In this document: piece by piece, positions 9,283 through 27,250 of the stretch
Layout of the letters: each line of letters opens with the position of its first letter
Numbering within the stretch: the stretch's first letter is position 1
Sequence record: OR352953.1
Length of the DNA: 64,000 bases
Reading direction: 5' to 3' (one strand)
Source: Escherichia phage AV123
Program-made: the position numbers and the translations under genes
The notes under the pieces: generated by a model
The model's database searches: none
Told to the model about the DNA's origin: nothing
What the model saw: the letters and a program-made list of their open reading frames with translations, nothing else

Positions 9283-9636
9283 ATGAAAATTGTACACGAT
9301 GAAATTCAATTTGAAGAGAGTGATCTTCTTGATCTGGATGTGACACTAAGTAAACTGATCTACAACGCACTTTCTGCATATCGTGCAAAAGTGATAGCCA
9401 CAAACAATGTTAAAATTCCTAGCGGGTTACTTCGTCGGATGTACCCACACGCTAAAGGTGACTATCTACCTTATATGGAAGAACGAGCAGCAGAACACTG
9501 GTTAGAAATTCTTGAAAAAATGGAGTCCTCTTTTAAGGATTCAACTCCACCTGAAGAAGTTAATGAAAAACAACGGCAAGAGCGTTTAGAAGGTCGTATT
9601 TTGTTTGCTAAGTATTTCCATAATTTGTGGAGCTAA
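9283..9636 (+). CDS. hypothetical protein
   Basis: 117 aa; AAGGAG RBS. Confidence 0.55.
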   Translation: MKIVHDEIQFEESDLLDLDVTLSKLIYNALSAYRAKVIATNNVKIPSGLLRRMYPHAKGDYLPYMEERAAEHWLEILEKMESSFKDSTPPEEVNEKQRQERLEGRILFAKYFHNLWS

Positions 9637-9716
9637 ACATATCTGGTAAAATCACTTATATGTTCTTAGTATACTTGTGTAAAGAAGTTATCGGTCTAAT
9701 TAATTAAGGGGAAGAT

Positions 9717-13409: not shown

Positions 13410-13961
13410 ATGCGGATTACTGATAAGTATGTGTTCTTCTTTTCAGCAAAAGATGAATTTAGCAACTGGTATCTATCATCTTTTATTGAACCTTTAGCAC
13501 CCAAGTATAATAATTCTATTACAAGTTCTGTTGAATTTACTTGTGTGGAACAATATATGATGTGGAGAAAAGCATGTTTGTTTTATGATTACAGTATTGC
13601 ATCTTCTATTTTAACCGGAGATCTAAGATATACAGGAGAAAAAGAACAAGCATATTATAAGCGACTAGGCAGATTAGTTAAAGATTATGATGAAGATACC
13701 TGGACTTCTTTACGGGAGAAGATTGTCAAACGTGGTTTGTATCTTAAATACACACAAAATGAAGATCTCAAAAATAAACTTATAACCTACGCAGATAAGG
13801 AGTTCGTAGAGGCAAGCCCTTATGATTCTATTTATGGTATCAAAATGGGGATGTGGGATCGTGACGTGGAAAATAAGGACTGTTGGAAAGGACAAAATCT
13901 TTTAGGAAAATGGCATACAGACCTTGCTGTTTATCTAAAAGCACAATCTGATATTTCCTGA
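13410..13961 (+). CDS. NADAR (YbiA-like) domain protein
   Basis: 183 aa; FF.S..EFSNW, VEQYMMW.KA, SPYDSIYGIKMG, NLLGK motifs recalled from NADAR/DUF1768. Confidence 0.6.
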   Translation: MRITDKYVFFFSAKDEFSNWYLSSFIEPLAPKYNNSITSSVEFTCVEQYMMWRKACLFYDYSIASSILTGDLRYTGEKEQAYYKRLGRLVKDYDEDTWTSLREKIVKRGLYLKYTQNEDLKNKLITYADKEFVEASPYDSIYGIKMGMWDRDVENKDCWKGQNLLGKWHTDLAVYLKAQSDIS

Positions 13962-14175
13962 TATTTTGAAAATTTTTATTTTTATAAAAAGGGGTGTGGG
14001 TTTCATGTACGGAAATTCACCCTCTGAATAATATATTCAGAGTAAATATTATTTTGTACTCTGTTAATAAATTATTTAATTTGTTTGTTGGATTATGATA
14101 TCTGGTTTTTAAAAGGCATACTATCTCTTAACTACTATTTATAACAGAACAGTAAAATCATTTTTATAAAAAGGA

Positions 14176-14382
14176 CAAAATTATTTAAAGTTTTTACAGA
14201 TTTTTGGATACAAATTTTGAAAATGAAAAGTTCAAGTTTGGTCAAAATTATTTAAAGTTTTTGTATGTATTTCTATCCAGATTTTGAAAATGAAAACTTC
14301 AATTTTTTAAAAATTCCCCAGTTTATTTAAAGTTTTTTTGCCTTTTTCCGTAGAAAAATCAAAAATGAAAAGTTCAATTTCG
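14176..14382. repeat. three tandem ~65 bp AT-rich direct repeats
   Basis: units at 14176, 14243, 14320 sharing ATTTAAAGTTTTT...ATTTTGAAAATGAAAAGTTCAA. Confidence 0.7.
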
Positions 14383-14400
14383 TGTTTTTATAGGTGTGTT

Positions 14401-14513
14401 AATGAGAATCATTTTCGTTTGTAAATGAGAATCATTATCATTTAACTATGTAAGTGATAATCATTCTCACTAAGAGAATGAGAATCATTAGCAAATGAGA
14501 ATTTTTCTCATTT
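14401..14513. promoter_or_regulatory. cluster of five Fur-box-like palindromes (ATGAGAAT-C-ATTCTCAT family)
   Basis: copies at 14401, 14424, 14454, 14474, 14493; one symmetric substitution from E. coli Fur core TGATAATCATTATCA. Confidence 0.5.
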
Positions 14514-14774
14514 AGAGAATAACGCGCAGGGGTGGTGTTTGTCTCGCGCTCCCGTGTCCCCTCGCCATACAATAAGAATAGCATAACCAACAACAAAAGC
14601 AAGCGATTATTTTTATCTTTACATTTCTTTACAAATTTATTTTAGACGAGCTACCAGCGATCAACCTTCCAACCAGTGCCCCCTGGTATGTTAGCCCCGC
14701 CTTTACGCCGTGGGGATGGCGCTTCCTCTTCTGTATGTAAAACAGTATAAGCCCGATCCCTGGGCTTGTCAAGA

Positions 14775-15041
14775 TTATTTTTTGTTTTCTTGCCAGGATA
14801 GGACACCTAACCAAAAATACATGTCGCCCCGCGCCCCTGGCGGGATCTTGCTTTCCCCGCCGCCACTGCAAGCCCATAGATAACCATTTGCGAACGTATC
14901 AAAATGATCTATTTCTTCCACCTTATGATCGCCCAGGTTGAGAACGGTTTCAACCTTTAAGCCCGTTGCGCTTGCTACCTGGTGCACCGTGCCGCCTTGC
15001 CAGCCTAATGAGTGCATGAGGTGTGAAGTAGTATTTGTCAT
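14775..15041 (-). CDS. hypothetical protein in GC-rich island
   Basis: 88 aa; ATG 15039-15041 with AAAGGG RBS; GC-rich unlike surroundings; overlaps a second ORF (14629-14877) in another frame. Confidence 0.35.
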   Translation of the reverse strand: MTNTTSHLMHSLGWQGGTVHQVASATGLKVETVLNLGDHKVEEIDHFDTFANGYLWACSGGGESKIPPGARGDMYFWLGVLSWQENKK

Positions 15042-15152
15042 GGTATCGCCCTTTCTTTGATGTGCGCCCTGGTTGGCGCGGTAGAAAGATAATAGCCCTT
15101 TCCTTTATAGATAGCAAGCAAAAAAGAAATGAAAAAAAGATTAAAAAAGGGG

Positions 15153-15181
15153 TTGACGGTTGGAACGATTAACGCTATTTT
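15153..15181 (+). promoter_or_regulatory. candidate sigma70 promoter
   Basis: TTGACG-17-TATTTT upstream of 15247 ORF. Confidence 0.3.
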
Positions 15182-15246
15182 GTTAGCCGTTCCAGTGTGG
15201 ATCACTGTAGCAATTGTTGTTTCAATCATTCTATAAGGCGCACACT

Positions 15247-15387
15247 ATGAGCAAGGTAATTAATCATAAAGAGTTAAACCCTACCCTTTCAATGAGTGAA
15301 TGTACCGATGGTTTTTGGCTGTATGATGATACGCGCGGTATGAATTTAGCCATGCGTGAAAAAAACAGAAGAGGCGGCGTATATTAA
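15247..15387 (+). CDS. small ORF (46 aa), possibly 5' part of a frameshifted gene
   Basis: ATG 15247; ends shortly after an A7 tract (15359-15365). Confidence 0.35.
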   Translation: MSKVINHKELNPTLSMSECTDGFWLYDDTRGMNLAMREKNRRGGVY

Positions 15388-15529
15388 AGCCCTGGGCTAC
15401 TATCAGGAGCGATTAAAGGAAGTAGAAAACAATTATAATAACCTAAAAGCAAAAGTAGATCACTTTATCAGCCAGGTAGCTCATGACGACGATGATCACT
15501 ACTGCGAACAATGTGGATCATATAGTTAA
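15356..15529 (+). CDS. small ORF in +1 frame, possibly 3' part of a frameshifted gene
   Basis: open from 15350; GTG at 15356; coiled-coil-like sequence; overlaps upstream ORF at the A7 tract. Confidence 0.35.
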   Translation: MKKTEEAAYIKALGYYQERLKEVENNYNNLKAKVDHFISQVAHDDDDHYCEQCGSYS

Positions 15530-15547
15530 AATTATCTAAAAATATTC

Positions 15548-15607
15548 TTGACAACGTTTTTTAATCTGATAAGATGTAACAAATAAGGCGGGAAGTGGTT
15601 TCCCACC
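15548..15607 (+). promoter_or_regulatory. promoter plus leader stem-loop cassette 1
   Basis: TTGACA-16-TAAGAT then GGCGGGAAGTGGTTTCCCACC hairpin, RBS, ATG 15633. Confidence 0.6.
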
Positions 15608-15632
15608 AGGCAATCAAAGAAAGGGTAACACA

Positions 15633-15995
15633 ATGAGCAAGCAAATCAATACTATCATGTTAAACCTGGTATCTTTCCGCGATGACGTGAAAAACCTTCC
15701 GCGTGATGCAGTGGATGCACGGATCGAAAGCTATCGCACACAGATCGCAACATTACCGTTAAAACGTGATCAACATGCCGCTAATATGATGCTTGATGCT
15801 ATGATTAAAAAGATGATTCAGTGTGATATTACCCTGGCTTATGAATATGCTGGCGATCTATTTGTAACATACAATAAACCCGTTCCAGGTATGAGCACAA
15901 CCGAAGAATTGCATGCCTTAAATCTGAGACAAGATGCATGGGATAACATGCGCCGTGTTATGGTATGGGTAGAAAGCGGCAAAATTTACGCGTAA
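15633..15995 (+). CDS. hypothetical early protein
   Basis: 120 aa; AAAGGG RBS. Confidence 0.6.
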   Translation: MSKQINTIMLNLVSFRDDVKNLPRDAVDARIESYRTQIATLPLKRDQHAANMMLDAMIKKMIQCDITLAYEYAGDLFVTYNKPVPGMSTTEELHALNLRQDAWDNMRRVMVWVESGKIYA

Positions 15996-15998
15996 AGA

Positions 15999-16052
15999 TT
16001 GACATTGCACTAAAACCTGATAAGCTATCTTAAAGCGGGAACTATTCCCGCT
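15999..16052 (+). promoter_or_regulatory. promoter plus leader stem-loop cassette 2
   Basis: TTGACA-16-TAAGCT then AGCGGGAACTATTCCCGCT hairpin. Confidence 0.55.
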
Positions 16053-16070
16053 TACATAGGATAAAACTTT

Positions 16071-16217
16071 ATGAAACAATATGTAATGAGTATTCACACC
16101 AAAAACGGCGCTACTGTTACGACTCCGGCACGGTTTGCACTTGTAAACCGTTGCAAAAGACTAAAACGAGAGCTAAAAAACAACCGTGCAACGGGCTTTA
16201 AACGCTGGGGAGGATAA
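16071..16217 (+). CDS. small basic protein (48 aa)
   Basis: hand-translated; AGGA RBS. Confidence 0.4.
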   Translation: MKQYVMSIHTKNGATVTTPARFALVNRCKRLKRELKNNRATGFKRWGG

Positions 16218-16219
16218 TC

Positions 16220-16480
16220 TTGTTTTTTCTAAAAGTTTTTGATAATGTGATCGCTTTTGAACATGCTACAACGTTCGACCTGGCGAGATACGCTATCAGG
16301 TTTAAAGATAATGTTTATCCCCGTGCTGGCGGCGGTTACACTATTTTTAATCATCGCAACGCGCAACTAACTGATATAACTAATCCAGATCCTGGAGTGT
16401 ATCGGATAGGCTGGCTACCGTCAAAAGATGCGGCAAGCATGTTTAAGGTATGTAAACTACTAACAGAAGAGGCGAACTAA
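16220..16480 (+). CDS. hypothetical protein (TTG start)
   Basis: 86 aa; GGAGGA RBS 5 nt before TTG; no in-frame ATG near N-terminus. Confidence 0.4.
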   Translation: MFFLKVFDNVIAFEHATTFDLARYAIRFKDNVYPRAGGGYTIFNHRNAQLTDITNPDPGVYRIGWLPSKDAASMFKVCKLLTEEAN

Positions 16481-16481
16481 C

Positions 16482-17036
16482 ATGGGGCGTGAATATGTGA
16501 TCCAGTCCTGGGTAAAGCATGATGCTAATGATCCGCGCATAATACCAGATGACATGATCGATCACATGGTAGGGTATAGCGGGGAGCAGATAGGAAATCG
16601 AGCGGCAAAGAGCAACGGCAACACCAGGACGCGATCCGTTCGCCCTGGATGGCTGGCAAATGGTAACGCTGACATTGCAAGCGCCGCAGATCCAAGCGAT
16701 GACGCTAAAAATAATCCCTTATACAGTATTGATCCGGCTTTTAAGGTGTTGGAAGAGTATCCCGCTAAATTAGCCGCACTAGATAAAGCATACGAAGAAA
16801 AACGGGTGGCATGGACTGTATACAACACCGCTAAAATGGTGCTAGATGCAAAATTGATTAAAGCCCAGGAGAAGATCAATAAACTTGTTACCATAGCGCG
16901 AGAGGAAGACCAGGACGACCAGGAGGAAGAGGAAGAAATCATGCCTAACCTGGAAGAGGAAGAGATCCAGCCATACACGCCGACAGAAGAGGAAAAAATA
17001 CAAGCCTTAAAAAATTATAAAAATTGTATTGTGTAA
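16482..17036 (+). CDS. hypothetical protein with strongly acidic C-terminus
   Basis: 184 aa; EEDQDDQEEEEEIMPNLEEEEIQ tail. Confidence 0.55.
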   Translation: MGREYVIQSWVKHDANDPRIIPDDMIDHMVGYSGEQIGNRAAKSNGNTRTRSVRPGWLANGNADIASAADPSDDAKNNPLYSIDPAFKVLEEYPAKLAALDKAYEEKRVAWTVYNTAKMVLDAKLIKAQEKINKLVTIAREEDQDDQEEEEEIMPNLEEEEIQPYTPTEEEKIQALKNYKNCIV

Positions 17037-17117
17037 GGCTTGACATATGCAAACAAGCCCCGTAATATGTACCACATAAAGCGGGGCAACGCCCCATAAG
17101 GTGAAATAAAAAATCAC

Positions 17118-17145
17118 TTGACACCTGAAATCAGTAAGCTATAAT
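17118..17145 (+). promoter_or_regulatory. sigma70 consensus promoter
   Basis: TTGACA-16-TATAAT. Confidence 0.6.
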
Positions 17146-17182
17146 GCTTATATAGATTGAAACATTACTAAGGAATAAAAGC

Positions 17183-17362
17183 ATGGCTATTATTGCAAAG
17201 ACTGAGATCGTAGGTTTAGATTCTATCATCCTGGCATATGAGGAAGCTATAGAAATGTATGTGGTTTCCTATGGTGATTATATCCGTGAATATAAATCTA
17301 TTGATCTAGCTTTTGAATGCTATATTCGCCAGGTCAATAAAGCATATGATGATTATCGTTAA
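17183..17362 (+). CDS. small hypothetical protein (59 aa)
   Basis: hand-translated; AAGGAA RBS. Confidence 0.45.
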   Translation: MAIIAKTEIVGLDSIILAYEEAIEMYVVSYGDYIREYKSIDLAFECYIRQVNKAYDDYR

Positions 17363-17457
17363 AAGTTTTAGTCTTGTGCTATTGACAACGAACGATAGTA
17401 CAAGCATAATAACTTTTATCGGGAATACTCCTAACTAATCAAAAGAGATTAAAGACT

Positions 17458-17823
17458 ATGGCTAAAAATATCAATGTTTCTGCTTATGCTACCCTGGCTA
17501 ACACTGCTAAAATTGAACTATCCAGCATTGAAGCGGTACATATTAGCGCCCGTCGCTGGTTTCAAAAGTCTTATGGTAATACTTATTTCTCTTTGATGGT
17601 TGACGTTGAGATCGGCGGTAAACTGATTGAAGTCGTTAACGTTCCGTTTCAATATGGTTATGGTGATCATTTTGATACCGTTGCCCTAGAAGAGTTTAGC
17701 AAGGTTATCAACCTGGAAGGTAAAGAGTTTTCAAATTATGCATACCTTTCCCGTTTTTGCCGTGATAATGGGATCGCTGTATACAGTCATGCAAGCGATG
17801 TTAAACGTAAAAAAGATTTATAA
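17458..17823 (+). CDS. hypothetical early protein
   Basis: 121 aa; own promoter TTGACA-18-CATAAT at 17382. Confidence 0.55.
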   Translation: MAKNINVSAYATLANTAKIELSSIEAVHISARRWFQKSYGNTYFSLMVDVEIGGKLIEVVNVPFQYGYGDHFDTVALEEFSKVINLEGKEFSNYAYLSRFCRDNGIAVYSHASDVKRKKDL

Positions 17824-17829
17824 AAAGCA

Positions 17830-17887
17830 TTGACAGCACGAATAAAAAGCATATAATACTTATATCGAGAGCGGGAATAGTTCCCGC
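17830..17887 (+). promoter_or_regulatory. promoter plus leader stem-loop cassette 3
   Basis: TTGACA-16-TATAAT then GCGGGAATAGTTCCCGC. Confidence 0.6.
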
Positions 17888-17911
17888 CTCACTGAAAAAG
17901 AGATTAACATC

Positions 17912-18151
17912 ATGGCTAAATCTAAAATGTTCTTAGGTCACAAAAACAAAACTCATTGGAATGTAAGCCTTTGGATCAACAACGATGAAGGTTTTTATAA
18001 TCTTGCGCGTGAATTTATCGCAGCTAACACCAATAAGAATGACGCAGCGCGGGATATGATGTTATTTCTTGAAAGTATGGATCAAGATAAAACGCCAGAC
18101 GGATTCAAGTTCAGTAAAACCGCGATCCGTGCCGCTATGGTTGGAATGTAA
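17912..18151 (+). CDS. hypothetical early protein
   Basis: 79 aa. Confidence 0.55.
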   Translation: MAKSKMFLGHKNKTHWNVSLWINNDEGFYNLAREFIAANTNKNDAARDMMLFLESMDQDKTPDGFKFSKTAIRAAMVGM

Positions 18152-18246
18152 AGGAGGTATAAAAATGAAACATCGTTCGACCTATCTCACAAAACGTTTT
18201 AGCTTAGATCATAAGTTAGGCTATTACGGAAGAAATAGAAAATAAT

Positions 18247-18306
18247 TTGACACTGTTTAAAATTCTGGTATAGTTTATCACATAGGGCGGGAAATGGTTT
18301 CCCGCC
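18247..18306 (+). promoter_or_regulatory. promoter plus leader stem-loop cassette 4
   Basis: TTGACA-16-TATAGT then GGCGGGAAATGGTTTCCCGCC. Confidence 0.6.
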
Positions 18307-18328
18307 AAATCAAAGAAAGGTTATCATT

Positions 18329-18556
18329 ATGGCTATCGTTATTGTTCGCGTATCCGGTACGGTTGGAAGCTCCCAGGTAGTAGCAGTTATCACAGAGAAG
18401 AAAGGGGATGATCTTCACTCCTCCTTGAATAGCTGGGCGGTCGCTAACTTTGGGCAATGGTCGAGCGTTGAGTACATCGAATCCTACCAGGTGCCAACGA
18501 TTAGCCTAACCGATCTAAATGTTGATCGCTTGTTGTGCCTGGATCAATTAAACTAA
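18329..18556 (+). CDS. hypothetical early protein
   Basis: 75 aa. Confidence 0.55.
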   Translation: MAIVIVRVSGTVGSSQVVAVITEKKGDDLHSSLNSWAVANFGQWSSVEYIESYQVPTISLTDLNVDRLLCLDQLN

Positions 18557-18564
18557 AAATAATA

Positions 18565-18620
18565 TTGACAAGATAACTAAAATCAGTAAAATGTAATGCA
18601 TAGGGCGGCAATAGTGCCGC
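18565..18620 (+). promoter_or_regulatory. promoter plus leader stem-loop cassette 5
   Basis: TTGACA-16-TAAAAT then GCGGCAATAGTGCCGC. Confidence 0.55.
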
Positions 18621-18643
18621 TCCTAGTGAGAGAGATTATCAAG

Positions 18644-18859
18644 ATGGCTAATATCCGCACACTGTTAAAAAATGCAAGTCAAGTTTTATTTTCAGATGAC
18701 GAGTATTTCAACAAAGACATTACAGGCGTGAAAAATTTAAAAGACGTGAAGGATGTTATCGGTATCCGTGGATCTTTACGTAAAGGTGACATATACGGTA
18801 ACAAGGTGCAATATAAACTGTCAAAAGATTATGATTTTACTTTGACATTTATTTCATAA
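18644..18859 (+). CDS. hypothetical early protein
   Basis: start reset to ATG 18644 downstream of the hairpin. Confidence 0.5.
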   Translation: MANIRTLLKNASQVLFSDDEYFNKDITGVKNLKDVKDVIGIRGSLRKGDIYGNKVQYKLSKDYDFTLTFIS

Positions 18860-18864
18860 AACCG

Positions 18865-18926
18865 CTTGCAATACTGCAAAAATAAAGTAAACTGTATTCA
18901 TCAAGGCGGTGGAATAGCCCACCGCC
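18865..18926 (+). promoter_or_regulatory. promoter plus leader stem-loop cassette 6
   Basis: TTGCAA -35-like, weak -10, GGCGGTGGAATAGCCCACCGCC hairpin. Confidence 0.4.
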
Positions 18927-18949
18927 TAACAAAGAGAAGAGGAAACATC

Positions 18950-19120
18950 ATGATCACTTTCGCTACCCGTGAAGCCGCTCGCAACGTTGCACGTAAAGTT
19001 AACGCCGCCAACCTGGGCGCTACGCTTAAAGCCCCGGTAAAAGATGAATCAGGTAAATGGATCTTCCCTGGTCTGCGTCACGCTGATAAGCTGGGAACGT
19101 TAACGCTAAAAAATAAATAA
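18950..19120 (+). CDS. small hypothetical protein
   Basis: start reset to ATG 18950 after hairpin; AGAGGA RBS. Confidence 0.5.
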   Translation: MITFATREAARNVARKVNAANLGATLKAPVKDESGKWIFPGLRHADKLGTLTLKNK

Positions 19121-19127
19121 AATCCGC

Positions 19128-19186
19128 TTGACAGTAGCATCATTTATAAGTAAAGTAACAACAACGGCGGGAAATGGTTTCCCGCC
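19128..19186 (+). promoter_or_regulatory. promoter plus leader stem-loop cassette 7
   Basis: TTGACA-17-TAAAGT then GGCGGGAAATGGTTTCCCGCC. Confidence 0.6.
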
Positions 19187-19206
19187 ATCAATAAAGAGAT
19201 AAGATC

Positions 19207-19566
19207 ATGAAATCAGTAAAAGCAATTAAAACTTACATTGTGTCGGCTATTTCTTTTGATGGTACTACAACCGAAAAAGAAAAGATCACCGAACTGATGC
19301 GCCGTTTTAACTCTGAATACTGGTATCCCGATAATCAAAAACGTTACAATTATAACGTGATCAAGGCGATAGCCTCATGGTTACAAGGTTTACCGTCAGA
19401 CATTAACATCGCCTTTGATTATAACGAGATTGATCATTTATTAATTGAATGGAAGTACATAAAAGAAACAAGCAAAGAAACAACCGTTACCCGTGAGCGG
19501 GAAAATTATTGGTTATATATTGCAAGCATGATCGTAATCCTGGCAAAACAGCATAACGTGGCGTAA
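19207..19566 (+). CDS. hypothetical early protein
   Basis: 119 aa. Confidence 0.55.
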   Translation: MKSVKAIKTYIVSAISFDGTTTEKEKITELMRRFNSEYWYPDNQKRYNYNVIKAIASWLQGLPSDINIAFDYNEIDHLLIEWKYIKETSKETTVTRERENYWLYIASMIVILAKQHNVA

Positions 19567-19581
19567 TTAAGAGGAAGAAAC

Positions 19582-19719
19582 ATGAACGCATCACAGCAGA
19601 TCGAAAAATTCAACCGCAGCAAGGCGCGTAAAGATTGGAACGAAGAGATCACCAAAAAAGGCGACAAGCGGAACAAAACAAAGAGAGATCGCAGCACAAA
19701 AAGATACTGGAACGAATAA
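19582..19719 (+). CDS. small lysine/arginine-rich protein (45 aa)
   Basis: hand-translated; AAGAGGAAG RBS. Confidence 0.45.
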   Translation: MNASQQIEKFNRSKARKDWNEEITKKGDKRNKTKRDRSTKRYWNE

Positions 19720-19723
19720 CAAA

Positions 19724-19747
19724 AAAGGGCGCAATAAGCGCCCTTTT
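19724..19747 (+). terminator. rho-independent terminator
   Basis: GGGCGCAATAAGCGCCC then TTTTAGC. Confidence 0.55.
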
Positions 19748-19838
19748 AGCTTATATAGAGGCTTGTTACCCATAGGCAATGGTAACGCCAGGATAAGCCT
19801 ATAAATCAACGTTAGACGGCTTTACAGGAGCTTTAAAA

Positions 19839-20021
19839 ATGAAATTAGACGAAATAAGCAAGGCACTAGCCCAGGGGCAAAGGTTATGCGCCCGATATCG
19901 TGATCAATATGGCTTCATAACTAGCGGCGTGATCCTGGGGATTGAAGGCAATAAGATTTTTATTGACACGTTGAAAAACGTTGTATATAGTGACAATATA
20001 ATCTCAATAAAACATATATGA
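19839..20021 (+). CDS. hypothetical protein
   Basis: 60 aa; AGGAG RBS. Confidence 0.45.
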   Translation: MKLDEISKALAQGQRLCARYRDQYGFITSGVILGIEGNKIFIDTLKNVVYSDNIISIKHI

Positions 20022-20029
20022 GGCAAGAA

Positions 20030-20431
20030 ATGAAAAAATTATTGATCGCTGGTTTAATCTCTTTTGGCATGGTTGGAACATCTAGCGCGGCGATATCCTC
20101 CACAGTAGCAGAATTAAGCGCCGTTGATGCAATGGAAAACGTCATGCTTATTAATAATGCGATCCCCGATGAAATCATGGAGGATTCACACATGATCGCT
20201 TATGGTGCTGTTACACAACTAACGGCAAAAATAGATAAATCTATTGTTAACGGCTTAAATGAAGATGTGCCATGTGAAATTATTACCAGTGTGCTGACTA
20301 CTCAAAATTTTACGCCGTGGTTAAAAAGTATTCAAAAAGTACACAGTACAGCCGCAGATCGTAGCAATGAAAAACTAGTGTCAGCACTTGCAACGTATAC
20401 CCTAGCAAAATGCACCGAGATAAAAGATTGA
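20030..20431 (+). CDS. secreted protein with signal peptide
   Basis: MKKLLIAGLISFGMVGTSSAA; start reset to ATG 20030. Confidence 0.55.
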   Translation: MKKLLIAGLISFGMVGTSSAAISSTVAELSAVDAMENVMLINNAIPDEIMEDSHMIAYGAVTQLTAKIDKSIVNGLNEDVPCEIITSVLTTQNFTPWLKSIQKVHSTAADRSNEKLVSALATYTLAKCTEIKD

Positions 20432-20478
20432 CAACATAGAAAGCACGTTATAAGATACACACAACAAAGGAGAACTAC

Positions 20479-20781
20479 ATGAACGGCATAGCTAAAACGT
20501 TTTTTCTTTTTTCTGGTGTAAATGATCCATCAATAAAAGTCGATAGTGTAAAAGAAAACAATACTATCACCGCTAAATTGTTTCAAGATGAAACAAATAA
20601 CGTGCTAATCATTAATCTTAAAGAAATAACGAAAGGTTATTATACTATTGCTTACCATGCAATCTATCGTGCTGGTACTAGTGAGGAAGTGCAAACAAGC
20701 AACAACGAAAGCGCGGCACTACCTGGTGATCTGGTGCTGGGCGTTATCAGTTTAATTGTCAATGATTTTTTTAAGGAGTAA
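20479..20781 (+). CDS. hypothetical protein
   Basis: 100 aa; promoter TTGACA-17-TAAGAT at 20428. Confidence 0.55.
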   Translation: MNGIAKTFFLFSGVNDPSIKVDSVKENNTITAKLFQDETNNVLIINLKEITKGYYTIAYHAIYRAGTSEEVQTSNNESAALPGDLVLGVISLIVNDFFKE

Positions 20782-20785
20782 AACC

Positions 20786-20881
20786 ATGCCCTATTTACAT
20801 TTATTTTTCGGTATCTTATTGACAGGATCTTTTTTCTTCTGTATGCTTGTTTCTATTGTAAACCACGTTTTAAGACATTAA
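20786..20881 (+). CDS. hydrophobic micro-protein (31 aa)
   Basis: hand-translated; strong TAAGGAG RBS. Confidence 0.4.
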   Translation: MPYLHLFFGILLTGSFFFCMLVSIVNHVLRH

Positions 20882-20890
20882 GGAAACAGC

Positions 20891-21010
20891 ATGAAAATTA
20901 TTCCCGTACAATATAGCGTAATAAATCCAGCATACGAGGAAGGAAGGAAAACAAGCATGGCTTTATGTTGTATTGCTACTATAGCCATGTTGTTATACAT
21001 TGTGTTTTAA
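20891..21010 (+). CDS. hydrophobic micro-protein (39 aa)
   Basis: hand-translated; AAGGAAA RBS. Confidence 0.35.
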   Translation: MKIIPVQYSVINPAYEEGRKTSMALCCIATIAMLLYIVF

Positions 21011-21110
21011 TAGGTTTTATAGTTGTACGCTTTAAAGGCTTGACAATTTTTTGTTATGCTTTAAACTATATCTTGAAAACGGCAAAGGCCGCAAACAAAA
21101 GGGTAAAATT

Positions 21111-21434
21111 ATGAAATCTGTGATCGGTGTTTATTTGGATAACTCTGATTTTTTCTATCATCGCGCGCGTTTACTTGATGCTATTGAAATGATAGAATCA
21201 GGCTTTAAAGAGTATCGCCTTGCACATGATGACCTGGAAGCATTACAGGGCAATAGTGTTTTTACATTGCAAGCGAAAGCACTATGCAAAAGCCGGATCG
21301 AGATTGCAAGTAAAAAGATACAACGCGGCATGTCCTGGTTGCGCACCGCAGAAATCAACATGGGGCAATGGTACGGCGAAAACTTAGAAAATAAACGCAC
21401 TTTTGTAAATGTAGAAAATCTTAAAGATTATTGA
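21111..21434 (+). CDS. hypothetical protein
   Basis: start reset to ATG 21111. Confidence 0.5.
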   Translation: MKSVIGVYLDNSDFFYHRARLLDAIEMIESGFKEYRLAHDDLEALQGNSVFTLQAKALCKSRIEIASKKIQRGMSWLRTAEINMGQWYGENLENKRTFVNVENLKDY

Positions 21435-21496
21435 TTGACAGCACACCTAACAGATAGTATATTGTATCTCATAGAGCGGGGAAATGGTTTCCCCGC
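21435..21496 (+). promoter_or_regulatory. promoter plus leader stem-loop cassette 8
   Basis: TTGACA-17-TATATT then GCGGGGAAATGGTTTCCCCGC. Confidence 0.6.
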
Positions 21497-21516
21497 CTTA
21501 ACAGAAGAGATAAGCT

Positions 21517-21801
21517 ATGAAGATCACAAAAGCACTTTCCAACTATGCAGCACGTCGCGGATTATGTTTAACCGTTGAAAATTTAGGGAAAGAAGATTTT
21601 TTGTGCTTTTGGGAGCTTGAGAATGATAATGAGTGGATCTTCTCTTATTCTATCTGCGAAGATCAAAACGGTTGTTTATTAACCTGGCGCGGTAATATCT
21701 ATCTACCGGAAGAAATCAAAGAAGAATTACCAGGCACGATCATGACTGAGAAACAGCTTAAGGAAGTGATCAATTTTGTAGGGCAAAACATTAAAAAATA
21801 A
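21517..21801 (+). CDS. hypothetical early protein
   Basis: 94 aa. Confidence 0.55.
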   Translation: MKITKALSNYAARRGLCLTVENLGKEDFLCFWELENDNEWIFSYSICEDQNGCLLTWRGNIYLPEEIKEELPGTIMTEKQLKEVINFVGQNIKK

Positions 21802-21802
21802 T

Positions 21803-21862
21803 TTGACACTAGGCAAACAACGTAGTAAAGTTTATCACATAGGGCGGGAAATGGTTTCCCGC
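21803..21862 (+). promoter_or_regulatory. promoter plus leader stem-loop cassette 9
   Basis: TTGACA-17-TAAAGT then GGGCGGGAAATGGTTTCCCGC. Confidence 0.6.
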
Positions 21863-21885
21863 TCACAACAGAAGAGAAACAAATC

Positions 21886-22056
21886 ATGATCCCAACTATG
21901 TTTTATGTATCGCGCAAAGGTCACAATATTTTTTGGTCTGAAGATTTAAATGAAGCCATGACGTTTGCCCGTGATCGTGTTGCTATCGGTGGCGTTAACA
22001 TTACTGTAACCGATGAAAACGGCATTGAATACTATAACGGCGACGATGAAGAGTAA
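21886..22056 (+). CDS. small hypothetical protein (56 aa)
   Basis: hand-translated; follows cassette 9. Confidence 0.45.
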   Translation: MIPTMFYVSRKGHNIFWSEDLNEAMTFARDRVAIGGVNITVTDENGIEYYNGDDEE

Positions 22057-22063
22057 TTAATAA

Positions 22064-22084
22064 GGCGGGGGAGTATTCCCCGCC
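22064..22084 (+). promoter_or_regulatory. leader stem-loop 10 (no obvious promoter)
   Basis: GGCGGGGGAGTATTCCCCGCC just upstream of RBS of 22104 gene. Confidence 0.5.
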
Positions 22085-22103
22085 GTCAATAAAGAGGTAA
22101 ATC

Positions 22104-22373
22104 ATGAAAATATCTTTGGACGTTGCAATCAAGGCCATTGAATCCGGTTACACCCTGGTAAAAGATGATAAGGCTAAAACCGTGCACCACGTTAACAAGG
22201 AAACAGGCGAAAGCATGATCACATATAAAACCGCCTATTTTCTCCAATCAGTAGCAGATCCGCGCGTACAACGCCAGGTTACGGCGGCTATTGCTAAAAA
22301 ATTATGTGCTTTACAGGGTACAAGTTTTAACGAGATCGCCCCGTGTTTTGACTGGTCGAGCTTGAAAAAATAG
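22104..22373 (+). CDS. hypothetical early protein
   Basis: 89 aa. Confidence 0.55.
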   Translation: MKISLDVAIKAIESGYTLVKDDKAKTVHHVNKETGESMITYKTAYFLQSVADPRVQRQVTAAIAKKLCALQGTSFNEIAPCFDWSSLKK

Positions 22374-22374
22374 T

Positions 22375-22430
22375 TTGACAACAATTATAAATCGGGTAGA
22401 ATGTATTTCGTAGGGCGGCAATAGTGCCGC
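22375..22430 (+). promoter_or_regulatory. promoter plus leader stem-loop cassette 11
   Basis: TTGACA-17-TAGAAT then GGCGGCAATAGTGCCGC. Confidence 0.6.
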
Positions 22431-22453
22431 TCACAACTAAAAGAGAAATCAGC

Positions 22454-22648
22454 ATGGCGCTTAAAAAACTAACAAGCAATACTCGTTGGGATGAAATCGA
22501 CGGAGAAGTTTACATTTTCGCCCGTAAACCAGGTGATCAAAAATGGTCTAAGGCTTTTACTTGCCACCCTGCAACAATAGACCTGATAAAAAGGGAAGGT
22601 TTACGTGAAGCGGTAGCAAGAAGTTTACTGATCCCTTATAAAAAATAG
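22454..22648 (+). CDS. hypothetical early protein
   Basis: start reset to ATG 22454 after hairpin. Confidence 0.5.
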   Translation: MALKKLTSNTRWDEIDGEVYIFARKPGDQKWSKAFTCHPATIDLIKREGLREAVARSLLIPYKK

Positions 22649-22649
22649 T

Positions 22650-22711
22650 TTGACAATACGCGGTTATCTGGTAAAGTGTACGACATAGGGCGGGGCAATA
22701 AGGCAACGCCC
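22650..22711 (+). promoter_or_regulatory. promoter plus leader stem-loop cassette 12
   Basis: TTGACA-16-TAAAGT then GGGCG...CGCCC hairpin. Confidence 0.55.
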
Positions 22712-22729
22712 ATTAATGAGGGTAGAATC

Positions 22730-22834
22730 ATGTTAGAGAAAATTTTCACGGTTGTAATAGTTGGCCTGGCGTTATCGGTTGGATTGGTTGCAACTATGGC
22801 TAACATGATCCTATCTTCCCACGGTATTGGATAA
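22730..22834 (+). CDS. hydrophobic micro-protein (34 aa)
   Basis: hand-translated; GAGGG RBS. Confidence 0.4.
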   Translation: MLEKIFTVVIVGLALSVGLVATMANMILSSHGIG

Positions 22835-22844
22835 GGTGAATCAA

Positions 22845-23060
22845 ATGATCACGAATAAGACAGGTAAAACAGAATTTTTACGCGGCTTGCAAATAGGTAA
22901 ACCTGAGATCTGGCATTGCACTAAATCCGCGCATAATGAAATGAAAGATTTTACCGCTACTTTACAACGTGTTAAAATATCTATCACGCAGAAAAAAGCC
23001 TTGTTAGTAGTAGAAAACGAGATACCGCAAACCATTATTATTGTCGAGCGTACAGCATGA
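22845..23060 (+). CDS. hypothetical protein
   Basis: start reset from TTG 22827 to ATG 22845. Confidence 0.45.
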   Translation: MITNKTGKTEFLRGLQIGKPEIWHCTKSAHNEMKDFTATLQRVKISITQKKALLVVENEIPQTIIIVERTA

Positions 23061-23443
23061 AAACTGAAATCATTATTGAAATCATCAACGGTTATAAAGA
23101 AGCCTTTATTTTTGCTGAATCAGCCAGGGATCATGAAGGCTATTTTATTGATAACTTAGACGATTATGATTTTTCAGATCAAGCCCATCAGCGGATCATT
23201 CATGACGTAGCGGCTTATTGTGATGCCAATGATGCTGCTATCTCTGAGGCAATGAGCGACGGCGCTACAGCAAACCAGATCGGGAATGATTTACATTTTA
23301 CCCGTAACGGTCACGGCGTAGGCTTTTGGGATCGCCCTGAAATATACACTACTAACACCGCCAACCGCCTAACAAATGCAGCTAAATTAATGCCATCGGT
23401 GCATGCTTACATTGGTGAAGATAATTTGATTTATATTGAATAA
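23057..23443 (+). CDS. hypothetical protein
   Basis: 128 aa; ATG overlaps upstream stop. Confidence 0.55.
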   Translation: MKTEIIIEIINGYKEAFIFAESARDHEGYFIDNLDDYDFSDQAHQRIIHDVAAYCDANDAAISEAMSDGATANQIGNDLHFTRNGHGVGFWDRPEIYTTNTANRLTNAAKLMPSVHAYIGEDNLIYIE

Positions 23444-23449
23444 AAAGTA

Positions 23450-23508
23450 TTGACACCGATCCCCAATATGTTATTATTTACCACGTAGGCGGGAAATGGT
23501 TTCCCGCC
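23450..23508 (+). promoter_or_regulatory. promoter plus leader stem-loop cassette 13
   Basis: TTGACA-16-TATTAT then GGCGGGAAATGGTTTCCCGCC. Confidence 0.6.
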
Positions 23509-23531
23509 AGGTAATCAAAAAGGTAAATACT

Positions 23532-23921
23532 ATGCGCAACCTGGTTTCTGTTTCTAACGTTGAAAAATTCCAATCTTTACAGGGTATCGTTAACAACGTA
23601 GCGCCTTTTTTAGTCAATGGCTTGATTGCAAAGATGAAAAATAAACATCATGCGGCATGGTCTGCTTACTGCTTTGATAATGATGAAAAAGCGGCTGAAA
23701 TGATGTTAAATATGCTGTTAGACAGTGTAGAATCATCTTTACCGGAAAACATCGCAGAAGAGATCACCTATCGTTATAATATGGCGATCACTTACCAGGA
23801 GGTTGCGCAATTTAATATGATGGATGATGACGAACAACAGGATCAGGAAATGTTCTGGGAGTATGCAGATCGTCAATCGGCTTTTGATGAAAAGTTAGCG
23901 ATGTATTATAACGAATATTAA
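23532..23921 (+). CDS. hypothetical acidic protein
   Basis: start reset to ATG 23532; track start lay inside the hairpin. Confidence 0.55.
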   Translation: MRNLVSVSNVEKFQSLQGIVNNVAPFLVNGLIAKMKNKHHAAWSAYCFDNDEKAAEMMLNMLLDSVESSLPENIAEEITYRYNMAITYQEVAQFNMMDDDEQQDQEMFWEYADRQSAFDEKLAMYYNEY

Positions 23922-23933
23922 TACACGGTAAAA

Positions 23934-23961
23934 GAAAGGGGCGCACTAAGCGCCCTTTTTT
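23934..23961 (+). terminator. rho-independent terminator
   Basis: GGGCGCACTAAGCGCCC then TTTTTTG. Confidence 0.65.
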
Positions 23962-24305
23962 GTATTCTTTTTCACAATGGAAGCGACACGTAAAGAATAG
24001 GCGTAAAGGTGGCGTAAAACCATCTAAAACCGACTGTAACCGCTTAAACAAGGTAGGAATGATTAATCACCTTACCAGGATGAAAAAGCTGTTATAAAGC
24101 TATCTAGAGCGTTTAAAGCACATAGGAAATAATTTGCTTTTTATCTTGCCTTTTATCCTGCTTTTGATTATTATTATGGAACGGGCGGCACCTGGGGACA
24201 GGGGAAGATAATCACCGGAAGATCCCGCTATATATTAATAGCTAATACCTATCAAACAACAAAACATCAAAGGAATAAACTATCAAATCTTTACAATCCT
24301 ACCTA

Positions 24306-24365
24306 TTGACACCGGATCGCCCTTATACTAAGATGTATCACGTAAGGCGGGAAGTGGTTTCCCGC
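24306..24365 (+). promoter_or_regulatory. promoter plus leader stem-loop cassette 14
   Basis: TTGACA-17-TAAGAT then GGCGGGAAGTGGTTTCCCGC. Confidence 0.6.
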
Positions 24366-24384
24366 TCAATATAGGAATCATATC

Positions 24385-24615
24385 ATGATCGAACAAATTA
24401 AACGCGCTGAAGCTATTAACGGCAATGTGATCTATTCTGTCAGCAATAACGAAAAAGGCGTACCCTATGCAGCGGTGATAGTACAGCCTGACGGTGATTA
24501 TTGGTTTACTGTATACGGATCTTATTCTTTTGGGCGTCCAGTACATGATAAAATTTTGAAAGTAGCTAATCCCACTGGGAAGAATATCACAGTAGAAAAA
24601 TTTTTTGAAAAATAA
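24385..24615 (+). CDS. hypothetical early protein
   Basis: 76 aa. Confidence 0.55.
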   Translation: MIEQIKRAEAINGNVIYSVSNNEKGVPYAAVIVQPDGDYWFTVYGSYSFGRPVHDKILKVANPTGKNITVEKFFEK

Positions 24616-24690
24616 CTTGCTTTATAGCCTCTGTTAACTTATAGTTATCGTGTAGGGCAAACAATTTTAAACGGTAAACGAGGAATCACC

Positions 24691-25074
24691 ATGAGCAATA
24701 TCATCAACCTGGCGGCTACTGTAAACGGTAAAGACTTTAACGGCGCTGTAGACCGTGATCCTATGTGGTGCTTGTCAGTGTTTAAAGGTGACTTGGTTGA
24801 AGTTAGAACAACCGAAGGGTATAGCGATGATTATAAATGCGAGATCCATTTACACAACTGGTACACGGGTAAAACTTATGCACTGAATCATGCGTTTATC
24901 GGCAAGGTTGAATATAGAGAAATGATCGACGAAGAAACGGGGCAAGATTTTAGCGAGCATGTTTATATTCGTTCAGAAACATTAGCCGAACGTTTGATCG
25001 AGAAAATGAAAGCAAAAAATAAAATTAATTTATCTCATTGGATTGATATAACAAACGATCCAGCTTATCAGTAA
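24691..25074 (+). CDS. hypothetical protein
   Basis: 127 aa; promoter TTGCTT-17-TATAGT at 24617; GAGGAA RBS. Confidence 0.55.
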   Translation: MSNIINLAATVNGKDFNGAVDRDPMWCLSVFKGDLVEVRTTEGYSDDYKCEIHLHNWYTGKTYALNHAFIGKVEYREMIDEETGQDFSEHVYIRSETLAERLIEKMKAKNKINLSHWIDITNDPAYQ

Positions 25075-25087
25075 ATAACATTTCAAA

Positions 25088-25116
25088 CAAGGGCGCTTAT
25101 TGCGCCCTTTCTTTTT
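25088..25116 (+). terminator. rho-independent terminator
   Basis: GGGCGCTTATTGCGCCC then TTTCTTTTT. Confidence 0.65.
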
Positions 25117-25321
25117 ACCTAAATAAAGATGATAGCTTTTACCTATCAAAAACGTTCACCGAAAAAAGTGAATAGATCGCGGTATCGAGCTAATCAAGGA
25201 GCAGATGAACAACCATACCATGAAGATCATAAGGCGCTTACAACGTGTTTTAGACCGCTTATTTTTAATTTCTTCATGTAATTACCTGGCAAAAACAGCC
25301 TTTTTCTTGTCTTTCCTCTTA

Positions 25322-25392
25322 AATGATAATCATTCTTATTTATAGCTGATTATTTATGCAATAAATTGCATAATGCAATAATGAGAATCATT
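25322..25392. promoter_or_regulatory. two Fur-box-like palindromes
   Basis: AATGATAATCATTCTTAT at 25322 and AATGAGAATCATT at 25380. Confidence 0.45.
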
Positions 25393-25801
25393 CTTAACTT
25401 AAGACCATCTAACCTATAAAATAATAAGTTATCTAACTAAATTAAAACTAATTATCTCACCTTTATTTATAACTTACTGTTACTATCTCATTGATAACAT
25501 TGTATTAAACAATAATAACTAATATAAATCATTACTAAGCTAAATATAATCTATCTAACCCTTAAAACTACAATTATAATCTATCGAATTGTTGCACAAA
25601 GTAACTATTAAATTGTTAGTAACATTACTAAATAATTCACATCCTATCTATTTATGATCTAATCTTTACCTTCCTATCTATTACTTAGATAATCATTTCA
25701 TACAGTAACCATTTCATGTAGTAATCATTCCATACAATAACTATAACAAGAAATATAATTCGCAAGCGTATCATTAGCAGCCTATGCCGGACACATAGGC
25801 G

Positions 25802-25948
25802 GCTAATAATAACGCAACTACACACCCCACATAATAACCATCACCGATAGTTATTATTTGTGCTTATGTAGCTTGCAACAATTGCAAGCGCAACAATATA
25901 CTAGGGTATATTGTATCCCTTACATTGTTGCGGTGCGTTATTATTAGC
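25802..25948. repeat. long-range inverted repeat with internal palindromes
   Basis: GCTAATAATAACGCAAC at 25802 versus GTTGCG(GTG)CGTTATTATTAGC at 25927; inner ACAATATAC..GTATATTGT. Confidence 0.6.
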
Positions 25949-26241
25949 TAATGTTTAGAACATTGGCTATAATATAAGCTATCCAATAATAAACATGGTG
26001 AATAATGACACTGATGATCATAATGCGCCACCCTCCAGGGGGCGCTATGTGAACACAAAGAAATCTTTCTTGTCAAGAAAAATATCACCATTATTGCGCA
26101 AAATTATTTATATCTGAATAGATGATTTTTCATACTATTGCCCCCTTGATTATTACCATTTGTTGAGCCTACTTTCTTAAAAGCGCAATAAAATAGAATT
26201 ATATTGATTTTTAGTCGGTTTTATAGTACAGAAAGTATGCA

Positions 26242-26456
26242 AATGATAATCATTATCAGCTATCTTCCACGGGTGGCACTATTTCACACCAGATCATTTC
26301 ATTTGGCAAGGTGTATATAGATGTTTAGACTTGCCAAGCCATTGATTTCCTTAGAATTTATCTGTTTTGTTGTGAGTAGTACCTTTCTTGCTTAGAAAAT
26401 AATCAAAAGTCTTATAAGTCATTGAATGATAATACAAATGATAATTATTCTCATTG
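26242..26456. promoter_or_regulatory. Fur-box-like sites
   Basis: AATGATAATCATTATC at 26242 (15/15 to Fur core) and GAATGATAAT..ATGATAATTATTCTCATTG at 26424. Confidence 0.5.
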
Positions 26457-26814
26457 ATATTTGAGGGGGACGGTCGGCAGAAATCGGGGGGTGCTGAAAA
26501 TCGCGTTAAGCACCTCTCGCAAGCGAGCAGTATTTTGCGGCAAGTTATTGATATTATTGACTTTACGCTTATGAAAAGGGGGTGTGTCGAAATAAATCGG
26601 GTATACCGGAAAATTTTTGTGGCATAGATATTTATTTGTCTATATTATGTACAAAGGGGTGTGTTAAAAATAATAGGTATATATAGAATAATTGATAGGG
26701 AATATCTATACTAATTCCTCCATTAATGATATTCCTATGCTACTGCTCTTGTAATAGATGAAAAGACGCTGTATGATGTGTGGCATGAAACGTAAACTTA
26801 TAAAGGAGTCTGAT

Positions 26815-27180
26815 ATGTGTGTTCCTCTTAGCAGTCCACTGCTGTTAGAATTTTACAAAGCATGGATGCAAGATCATTCCTCAATGCATCGTGAGAATGT
26901 TGGTTTGTGTATTTGCCTTATGGATTATCTGGCAACCACTATGTCAAAGAAAAAACCTACGCGAGAAGATATAGAACATTTCAAAATGGTTCGCAGTAAA
27001 ACGCTGGAAGAGATGAAATTGCAATTCACGTGTGCTGGGCTATCCTCCTTCCTGCCCTTTAATGATGATCTTCTGTGTTATGAAGATGAAGGTAAGAAAC
27101 ATTCTTGCCATACTAACCCAGGGAGATTGCAGTGGGTGAAAGACAGACTCGAAGATGCAAATAATGCTTGCATTGAATAG
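26815..27180 (+). CDS. paralog family A protein (copy 1)
   Basis: LLEFY, GLCICL, PFN, RLQWVKDR motifs shared with 28961 and 29953; start reset to ATG 26815 (AAAGGAG RBS). Confidence 0.6.
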   Translation: MCVPLSSPLLLEFYKAWMQDHSSMHRENVGLCICLMDYLATTMSKKKPTREDIEHFKMVRSKTLEEMKLQFTCAGLSSFLPFNDDLLCYEDEGKKHSCHTNPGRLQWVKDRLEDANNACIE

Positions 27181-27250
27181 AAATGCCTGTACACTGTGTT
27201 CCATAAGATATGCAATATCGCGCATAACAAACTACTAATGAGAGGTGTAA

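Follow-up and report, generated by a model that had tools for sequence, protein, structure and literature searches.

The 64,000-nucleotide stretch of Escherichia phage AV123 analysed here (OR352953.1; hereafter the window) contains two large non-coding hubs, both of which carry short palindromes resembling operators of the Escherichia coli regulator Fur. Mismatch scores and a matrix built de novo make these boxes indistinguishable, by sequence, from strong E. coli Fur operators, and two of them lie within what appears to be the direct terminal repeat (DTR) of the genome. Host Fur probably binds the boxes, those at the genome ends included. That they are maintained as docking sites for host Fur, where bound Fur would locally affect transcription begun in the DTR or entering it from outside, is the reading we favour, although tentatively and at somewhat less than an even chance, the transcriptional outcome of docking being less certain than the binding. 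Docking by host Fur is supported by the motif match, its enrichment and conservation, the recovery of host operators with a phage-derived matrix, the lack of a phage Fur and a parallel in phage T5. A preliminary description of the window had listed Fur-box-like sites at 25322, 25380, 26242 and 26424–26456; all are present in the sequence, and its counts for the 26242 site (17/19 against the Fur 19-mer, 15/15 against the core) are correct.

Hub 2, between the last gene of the right arm and the first gene of the left arm, holds four boxes, none of which is assigned a strand. Box A (26239–26258) is a near-perfect Fur box 79 nt inside the left boundary of the DTR. Its 19-mer GCAAATGATAATCATTATC (26239–26257) has two mismatches to the Fur consensus GATAATGATAATCATTATC, and its 15-mer TGATAATCATTATCA (26244–26258) matches the 7-1-7 core TGATAATnATTATCA exactly. 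Box B (26422–26456) is an array of Fur-type hexamers related to GATAAT, TTGAAT GATAAT ACAAAT GATAAT TATTCT CATTG, with a core 15-mer TGATAATTATTCTCA (26439–26453) that has one mismatch, 55 nt from the inner (right) DTR boundary. Boxes C (25322–25338) and D (25380–25396) contain exact copies of the 13-mer core AATGA(T/G)AATCATT, namely AATGATAATCATT (25322–25334) and AATGAGAATCATT (25380–25392). The 15-mer of Box C, TGATAATCATTCTTA (25324–25338), has two mismatches and that of Box D (25382–25396) three, with four over the Box D 19-mer (25377–25395). A 46-amino acid open reading frame (ORF) over Box C (25205–25345) had no family match and is poorly conserved in the homologous stretch of phAPEC8, and was treated as non-coding. 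Hub 1 carries an array of five boxes of the same family (14398–14510, likewise unstranded), ∼12.05 kb or 8.1% of the genome from the inferred right end. The boxes thus total nine per genome unit and, because Boxes A and B inside the DTR would be carried at both ends of the virion DNA, eleven per virion DNA. Some boxes form a 'box plus G-run' unit, a Fur-like box followed by a G-rich run ∼15 nt later; a degenerate third such unit, 70% identical to 26237–26273, lies at 26005–26041, ∼125 bp upstream of the DTR.

The position of these boxes became apparent from related genomes. The region 24600–27200 matched 124 phage records with identities of up to 96%, nearly all of them Stephanstirmvirinae (Justusliebigvirus: vB-Eco-KMB37, Nernie, inny, phi92), and the window therefore belongs to a phi92-like E. 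coli myovirus of ∼146–149 kb. The phi92 record terminates inside hub 2, and a more sensitive search matched a phi92 feature annotated as 'right end direct terminal repeat'. When aligned to the window, the 343-bp repeats of phi92 (1–343 and 148270–148612) correspond to exactly 26166–26508, a sequence present here in one copy, which by homology would be the DTR and the physical genome ends (unstranded). In the Phapecoctavirus Schickermooser, an exact repeat of 329 bp occurs at the two ends of the record, and the repeat boundaries carry the same motifs as the window (AGC..TCTTAAA ... AAAAT(T)CGCGTTA). These motifs occur internally in phAPEC8, ZCKP1 and ukendt, while in Klebsiella phage KP13-26 the right-boundary motif alone was detected. 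By homology with the phi92 and Schickermooser repeats, hub 2 would be the junction of the genome ends, where a gene for a Gp30.8-like protein, a terminator, Boxes C and D, a G-poor repeat-rich stretch, a multi-hairpin element, the DTR, a leader of ∼300 nt and the gene at 26815 follow in that order. The untranslated right end measures 1.1 kb and includes Boxes C and D. Four UNVERIFIED records of 'Campylobacter phage' A150, A145, C3 and A110a (MG065639/45/56/89; listed host Campylobacter jejuni) are classified as Justusliebigvirus and are 94.7% identical to this E. coli phage over the query; a misassigned host is probable, or else contamination of the samples.

Across the entire window, the 19-mer was found five times at ≤3 mismatches against 0.09 expected, and the 13-mer 12 times at ≤1 mismatch against 0.65 expected, each time in one of the two hubs. 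The hubs are AT-rich and filled with repeats, which would favour palindromes arising by chance and without function, and a hub-local control of 5,000 simulations was drawn from the first-order Markov composition of each hub. In hub 2, three 15-mers at ≤2 mismatches stood against 0.077 expected (P = 4e-4), and in the DTR alone two stood against 0.011, a result obtained in 0/5000 simulations. Since the enrichment survives these simulations, AT-richness does not explain the boxes. In the complete genome of the close relative A145 (146,364 bp), seven of the 11 sites at ≤2 mismatches fall inside the two hubs. With P ≤ 4e-4 under local composition, conservation across genera, non-random flanks and the recovery of host operators, a chance origin is effectively refuted and we see hardly any likelihood in it. 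The earlier proposal that one palindrome family marks both non-coding hubs, beyond what AT-richness would produce, is accordingly borne out by the window-wide 13-mer counts, the simulations and the cross-genus conservation.

The level of resemblance to genuine operators was gauged against the fepA-fes, fepD-entS, fepB-entC, fhuA, cirA, fecI and exbB promoter regions of E. coli K-12. The best matches in these classical Fur operators have 3–7 mismatches over 19 positions and 1–4 over 15, so that all four boxes of hub 2 are at or above operator level. In order to avoid circularity, a weight matrix was built only from nine copies that a repeat finder had returned without reference to Fur, and was used to scan 48.5 kb of K-12 DNA rather than the whole genome. 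The top eight hits all fell in intergenic regions under Fur control, which account for 4.2% of the DNA scanned: fepB-entC (twice), fecI, fhuA, cirA, fepD-entS, fepA-fes and fecA. The ninth hit adjoins the fur promoter and the tenth is exbB. Pooling 31 boxes from six phages gave the consensus aAA-TGA(T/G)AAT-N-ATT(A/C)TCA-TTt, in which the variable positions are the T/G position and the central base (C in 13 boxes, G in 12, T in four and A in two). The flanking A/A and T/T, which lay outside the search pattern, were present in 21–24 of the 31 boxes, in keeping with the extended Fur palindrome. Complementarity between dyad positions 4 and 12 is missing in 17/31 boxes, with one perfect palindrome only, which indicates that the symmetry reflects two protein half-sites rather than a hairpin; a hairpin of RNA or DNA was rejected on these grounds.

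The protein that recognises these half-sites is unlikely to be a Fur of the phage itself, as a tblastn search with E. coli Fur against the complete relative, the window and T5 positions 1–45 kb returned noise only, and a phage-encoded Fur was ruled out on that basis. Another dimeric DNA-binding protein of the phage, such as an early regulator or the small terminase subunit, could in principle use the boxes, their likeness to Fur sites being coincidence or mimicry. Dyad symmetry suits any dimeric protein, several transcription regulators are predicted in the left arm of phi92, and the hubs contain other conserved repeats, so phage factors act there. However, the motif holds to the enterobacterial Fur consensus across divergent subfamilies without drift, and the de novo matrix picks out almost nothing in host DNA but Fur operators. 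The same 13-mer is also present in the unrelated T5, whose A2 protein has no homologue in the phi92-like relative (first 45 kb of T5 compared). We therefore think a phage protein improbable as the ligand of the boxes.

The boxes recur across related phages, albeit in relatives that represent few independent lineages. They are present at equivalent relative places in other Justusliebigvirus, in Phapecoctavirus (phAPEC8, ZCKP1, ukendt, Schickermooser) and in KP13-26, and in a similar paired arrangement in the Vequintavirinae phage 4MG and two metagenomic relatives. A scan of IMG/VR with the DTR-end pattern returned 26 loci, just two of them related, and one with the upstream protein returned five loci. 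A box ∼250 bp after the Gp30.8-like gene is found in phi92, inny, phAPEC8, ZCKP1, ukendt and KP13-26. At hub 1, Schickermooser has four boxes at the homologous place, 9.3% from the end, with the half-sites kept and the central bases changed. In an eight-genome alignment of the DTR, mean column identity was 0.75, compared with 0.89 for Box A and 0.83–0.84 for Box B. Box B is kept in all eight phages, shifted by one hexamer (6 nt) in Phapecoctavirus, while in KP13-26 the ancestral position of Box A is degenerate and a new box has appeared ∼40 nt downstream. The displacement of Box A and the register shift of Box B represent the turnover expected of a transcription factor-type site.

Turnover without positional precision would also suit a model in which the number of sites is what counts, with replicated boxes acting as a decoy that titrates the Fur pool and de-represses iron uptake and the iron-sparing response of the host to the benefit of the phage. 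Multicopy Fur boxes do de-repress the Fur regulon, which is the basis of the Fur titration (FURTA) assay; in addition, the phage boxes equal or exceed the best host operators in their match to the consensus, and they occur solely in the two hubs, there being no other large non-coding regions. A decoy would not require conserved placement in the DTR at fixed distances from the ends, however, and to act late in infection it would need ongoing host transcription, whereas T5, which has the same motif, is annotated as degrading host DNA via A1. The window yielded no phage function that depends on iron, and our literature search found no precedent for a decoy of this kind. We give this explanation about as little credence as a phage protein.

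In the favoured reading, the palindromes would be under selection as docking sites for Fe2+-Fur dimers of the host, and in an iron-replete host they would be occupied. Bound Fur would then hinder host RNA polymerase started at the predicted promoter P_DTR (26303–26331), as well as polymerase reading from the early operons of the right arm into the repeat and the concatemer junction, such that transcription across the genome ends would become iron-dependent. Promoters in this analysis are predictions from a sigma-70 weight matrix calibrated on ∼25 strong right-arm early promoters (scores 9–14). P_DTR (plus strand; TTGGCA-17-TAGACT, with TTGACA in phi92) scores 11.6 (13.3 in phi92), points into the left arm and is the sole strong sigma-70-like promoter in hub 2. 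It lies between the two DTR boxes, with Box A at approximately −87 and Box B at approximately +85 to +119. A weaker but conserved promoter-like site, TTGTAA-17-TATGAT at 26749–26777 (plus strand), immediately precedes the first left-arm gene and lies ∼300 bp past Box B; it scores 8.0–9.1 and is found at the equivalent place in the window, Schickermooser, phAPEC8 and ZCKP1.

This promoter geometry does not resemble a classical Fur operator. The preliminary description had placed the 26242 and 26424 sites upstream of the gene block beginning at 26815, which implied a role as its operators. These sites are inside the inferred 343-bp DTR; the part of the interpretation that stands is the non-random, conserved family of Fur-like motifs, while the terminal nature of the hub had gone unrecognised. 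With the sigma-70 matrix, no box was found on a promoter and P_DTR proved not to be conserved in Phapecoctavirus, and the classical operator model was rejected. As no conserved promoter is overlapped and the downstream genes have no link to iron, classical Fur control of the 26815 block is unsupported.

Several observations also weigh against docking sites with a transcriptional effect. P_DTR is strong in Justusliebigvirus only, although the boxes are conserved more widely, and the −35 and −10 elements of conserved promoters are free of any box. Family matches revealed no iron-related function among the genes flanking the boxes. Relatives of this phage have been isolated on laboratory E. coli strains, among them K-12 MG1655 and DH5alpha, which, assuming ordinary iron-replete media, means that Fur occupancy is no strong block to infection. 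The placement of the DTR in this phage is by homology. Lastly, the best-conserved blocks of the DTR (26331–26347 and 26411–26428) exceed the Fur-like boxes in conservation and are other motifs, which implies that other factors act there too. The first of them is the most conserved block of all, TGCCAAGCCATTGAT (column identity 0.96; unstranded), with a CATTGAT-type motif. These two blocks, together with 26446–26465 and also 26203–26210, have a common CATTGA(T/A) or TTGAT(T/A)T motif (e.g., TGCCAAGCCATTGAT and AAGTCATTGAAT) and could serve for recognition by terminase or some other factor.

The phage growth on rich media would be compatible with a positive role for Fur, whereby Fe2+-Fur bound upstream of P_DTR displaces H-NS-type silencing and favours terminal early transcription in iron-replete hosts. 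E. coli ftnA provides the precedent for such displacement. Box A lies at approximately −87 from P_DTR, and with a GC of 0.30 hub 2 exceeds the rest of the window in AT content, such DNA being a typical H-NS target. Nevertheless, P_DTR is not conserved where the boxes are, and Box B is downstream of the start site, making this role very unlikely.

A link between such boxes and genome ends also emerged outside the phi92-like phages. An exact 18-mer scan of viral contigs returned at least 120 loci, one of which is a T5-like Salmonella phage whose box cluster adjoins DnaA boxes. In T5 itself (NC_005859.1), the annotated injection-stop signal (iss) falls within a 10.2-kb terminal repeat (annotated 'enters host cell first') and contains six of the eight 13-mer matches in the first 45 kb, against 0.49 expected. 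At 9548–9715, within the iss, five to six copies of TTTTTAAATGAGAATCATT(ATCATT) stand beside DnaA boxes and the calculated shear point of first-step transfer, and a perfect 15-mer TGATAATCATTATCA occurs at 233–247, 233 nt from the left end of T5 and inside dmp. Davison's comparison of iss regions (bioRxiv 10.1101/866236) describes these palindromes and puts forward a stop based on DnaA, never mentioning Fur or iron. Homologues of T5 first-step-transfer proteins, including the DNA-binding protein A2, were absent from the complete phi92-like relative when compared with the first 45 kb of T5, and a DNA-binding protein held in common with that region was rejected accordingly. Given the common 13-mer and the absence of such homologues, a shared host factor is the simplest link between the two phage groups. 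Our literature search found no report tying Fur to Stephanstirmvirinae, first-step transfer, phage terminal repeats or a phage decoy, nor any of Fur boxes in phi92-like phages or the T5 iss, and the paper on the rV5 genome is silent on both Fur and iron.

The likeness to the T5 iss consists of an untranslated hub, rich in repeats and associated with a terminal repeat, with TTTTTAAATGAGAATCATT being the 13-mer of the window. The hub 1 array lies 8.1% from the right end, compared with 7.9% of the genome for T5 first-step transfer, and the region from hub 1 to the right end is dense in strong host-type promoters, as is T5 first-step-transfer DNA. T5, in contrast, has a 10.2-kb coding repeat, paired DnaA boxes in its iss and a nick nearby, whereas the repeat of the window is 343 bp and non-coding. 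Consensus DnaA boxes, whose pairing characterises a T5-type injection stop, were found in neither hub 1 nor hub 2, and the similarity is confined to the Fur-like array and the distance of ∼8%.

These parallels bear on a possible but unlikely alternative in which the boxes serve at the level of DNA, with Fur or a host protein of the same specificity as an architectural cofactor on the terminal DNA. It could gate or stage entry, protect the ends, or arrange the concatemer junction so that terminase can cut and the repeat be duplicated, by analogy with the host-factor role proposed at the T5 injection stop. IHF at lambda cos is an analogue of such a cofactor. Such a role would account for Boxes A and B lying in the DTR at conserved distances to both boundaries in every lineage examined, and for box conservation independent of the promoter. 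The T5 boxes, the hub 1 distance in both the window and Schickermooser, and the conserved multi-hairpin element just upstream of the right repeat also fit. On the other hand, the hubs lack the DnaA boxes typical of the T5 iss, the turnover of Box A in KP13-26 speaks against base-pair-precise geometry, staged injection is not known for phi92-like phages, and Boxes C, D and hub 1 are outside the repeat. Fur as a cofactor of packaging or entry was not found in the literature search. A broader proposal still is that unrelated virulent coliphages (phi92-like, Vequintavirinae and T5-like) have converged on Fur-box arrays as a docking signal for a host factor, placed on the DNA at their ends or on the DNA that enters first. 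Fur already in the cell and loaded with iron would bind the arriving genome end and gate entry or first transcription, hub 1 being the functional counterpart of the T5 iss. We consider this distinctly improbable; if true, the infection programme or staged DNA transfer would depend on the iron status of the host.

Hub 1 (13960–15130) has several further features. Three direct repeats of 67–75 bp (14160–14380) precede the five boxes, and a strong minus-strand promoter, TTGACA-17-TATACT with its −35 hexamer starting at 14772, is aimed at them. Between this promoter and the boxes is a GC-rich block (∼14520–14737) with a left end that is conserved in Schickermooser. Upstream of the promoter lies a conserved minus-strand ORF of 88 amino acids (14775–15041; PHROG 19316). 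From 15150 to 24340 the plus strand carries ∼25 strong sigma-70-type promoters, mostly TTGACA with a good −10, every 300–500 bp before small genes. The whole right arm from hub 1 to the genome end looks like an early region read by host polymerase.

The genes and elements bordering the hub 2 boxes are as follows from left to right. The last right-arm gene (24691–25074, plus strand) encodes the Gp30.8-like protein (Pfam PF06019 Phage_30_8, E = 2e-28), equivalent to phi92 gp248. An intrinsic terminator with an 8-bp stem of six GC pairs and a T-run (25089–25109, plus strand) closes the right-arm early operons, and terminators are annotated at the equivalent place in phAPEC8 and Schickermooser. 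A weak promoter-like site, TTAACT-17-TAAAAT at 25394–25422, abuts Box D and points into the G-poor stretch. This untranslated, AT-rich and repeat-rich stretch (25400–25760, plus strand; GC 0.30, GC skew −0.23) contains TATCTAAC-type repeats (families D3, D9 and D10) and a 16-nt tandem repeat in three copies at 25690–25753; its counterpart in phAPEC8 is A/C-rich. The multi-hairpin element (25780–25950, plus strand) comprises a 15-bp closing stem (25802–25816 / 25934–25948) around internal hairpins, with a further hairpin 5' of the stem. Folding of the eight-phage alignment gave 49 pairs, five with compensatory double changes, which are GC<->CG swaps between Justusliebigvirus and Phapecoctavirus. 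An Rfam scan of the window gave no match, this element included, and a tRNA scan of the window found none. The multi-hairpin element may act as a structured RNA, or at the DNA level in processing of the concatemer junction. Between the DTR and the first left-arm gene, an element AAGGGGGTGTGT..AAATAAT.GG(TATA) is repeated at 26463–26487, 26576–26600 and 26653–26677; it is conserved in phAPEC8 and has a related copy at the start of hub 1 (13988–13998). The first left-arm gene (26815–27180, plus strand) has a ribosome-binding site, AAGGAG, at 26803 and belongs to PHROG 2510, with no Pfam match, and the genes downstream of it encode small proteins in PHROGs of no known function.

Collections of E. 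coli phages commonly include phi92-like and Phapecoctavirus phages, and the infection sites relevant to therapy are iron-limited, precisely the state in which Fur boxes stand empty. Should Fur bind the genome ends, the efficiency of infection, early transcription or packaging in laboratory media might not be the same as in the host environment. The presence of the motif in the T5 iss also makes it a candidate for the mechanism that stops first-step transfer, a question ∼50 years old.

Among known systems, the chromosomal Fur operators of E. coli (e.g., fepB-entC, fhuA, fecI and cirA) have the same motif, the same hexamer periodicity and often an arrangement in arrays. Host operators overlap the −35 or −10 of iron-uptake promoters, whereas the phage boxes overlap no conserved promoter and lie in a terminal repeat, beside genes of no known function. 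T7-type genomes have short direct terminal repeats and early promoters near the left end; the present phage would be similar in its short non-coding repeat at both ends and its rightward host-type promoter near the left end, but differs in having the promoter inside the repeat. We know of no report of Fur boxes in T7-type terminal repeats. A Fur box on a phage genome is familiar from the Fur-regulated stx1 promoter of Shiga-toxin prophages, although in that case a temperate phage has just one operator, placed at a cargo toxin gene promoter, and here an array occupies the terminal and non-coding DNA of a virulent one. The temperate lambdoid phages mEp213, mEp043 and mEp237 have a perfect extended Fur box, AAATGATAATCATTATCATTT, 150–240 bp from the right record end. 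Lytic phages with conserved sites for a host global regulator, which tie infection to the physiology of the host, are represented by the CtrA boxes of alphaproteobacterial phages (PMC9437464) and the PhoB-dependent genes of cyanophages (PMC10976474). In those phages the sites are reported at promoters of identifiable genes, whereas here they are Fur-like and located in termini and non-coding hubs. If docking of host Fur holds true, Fur would join LexA, CtrA and PhoB as host global regulators whose sites are kept by phages, with the Fur sites in terminal repeats rather than at the promoters of cargo genes.

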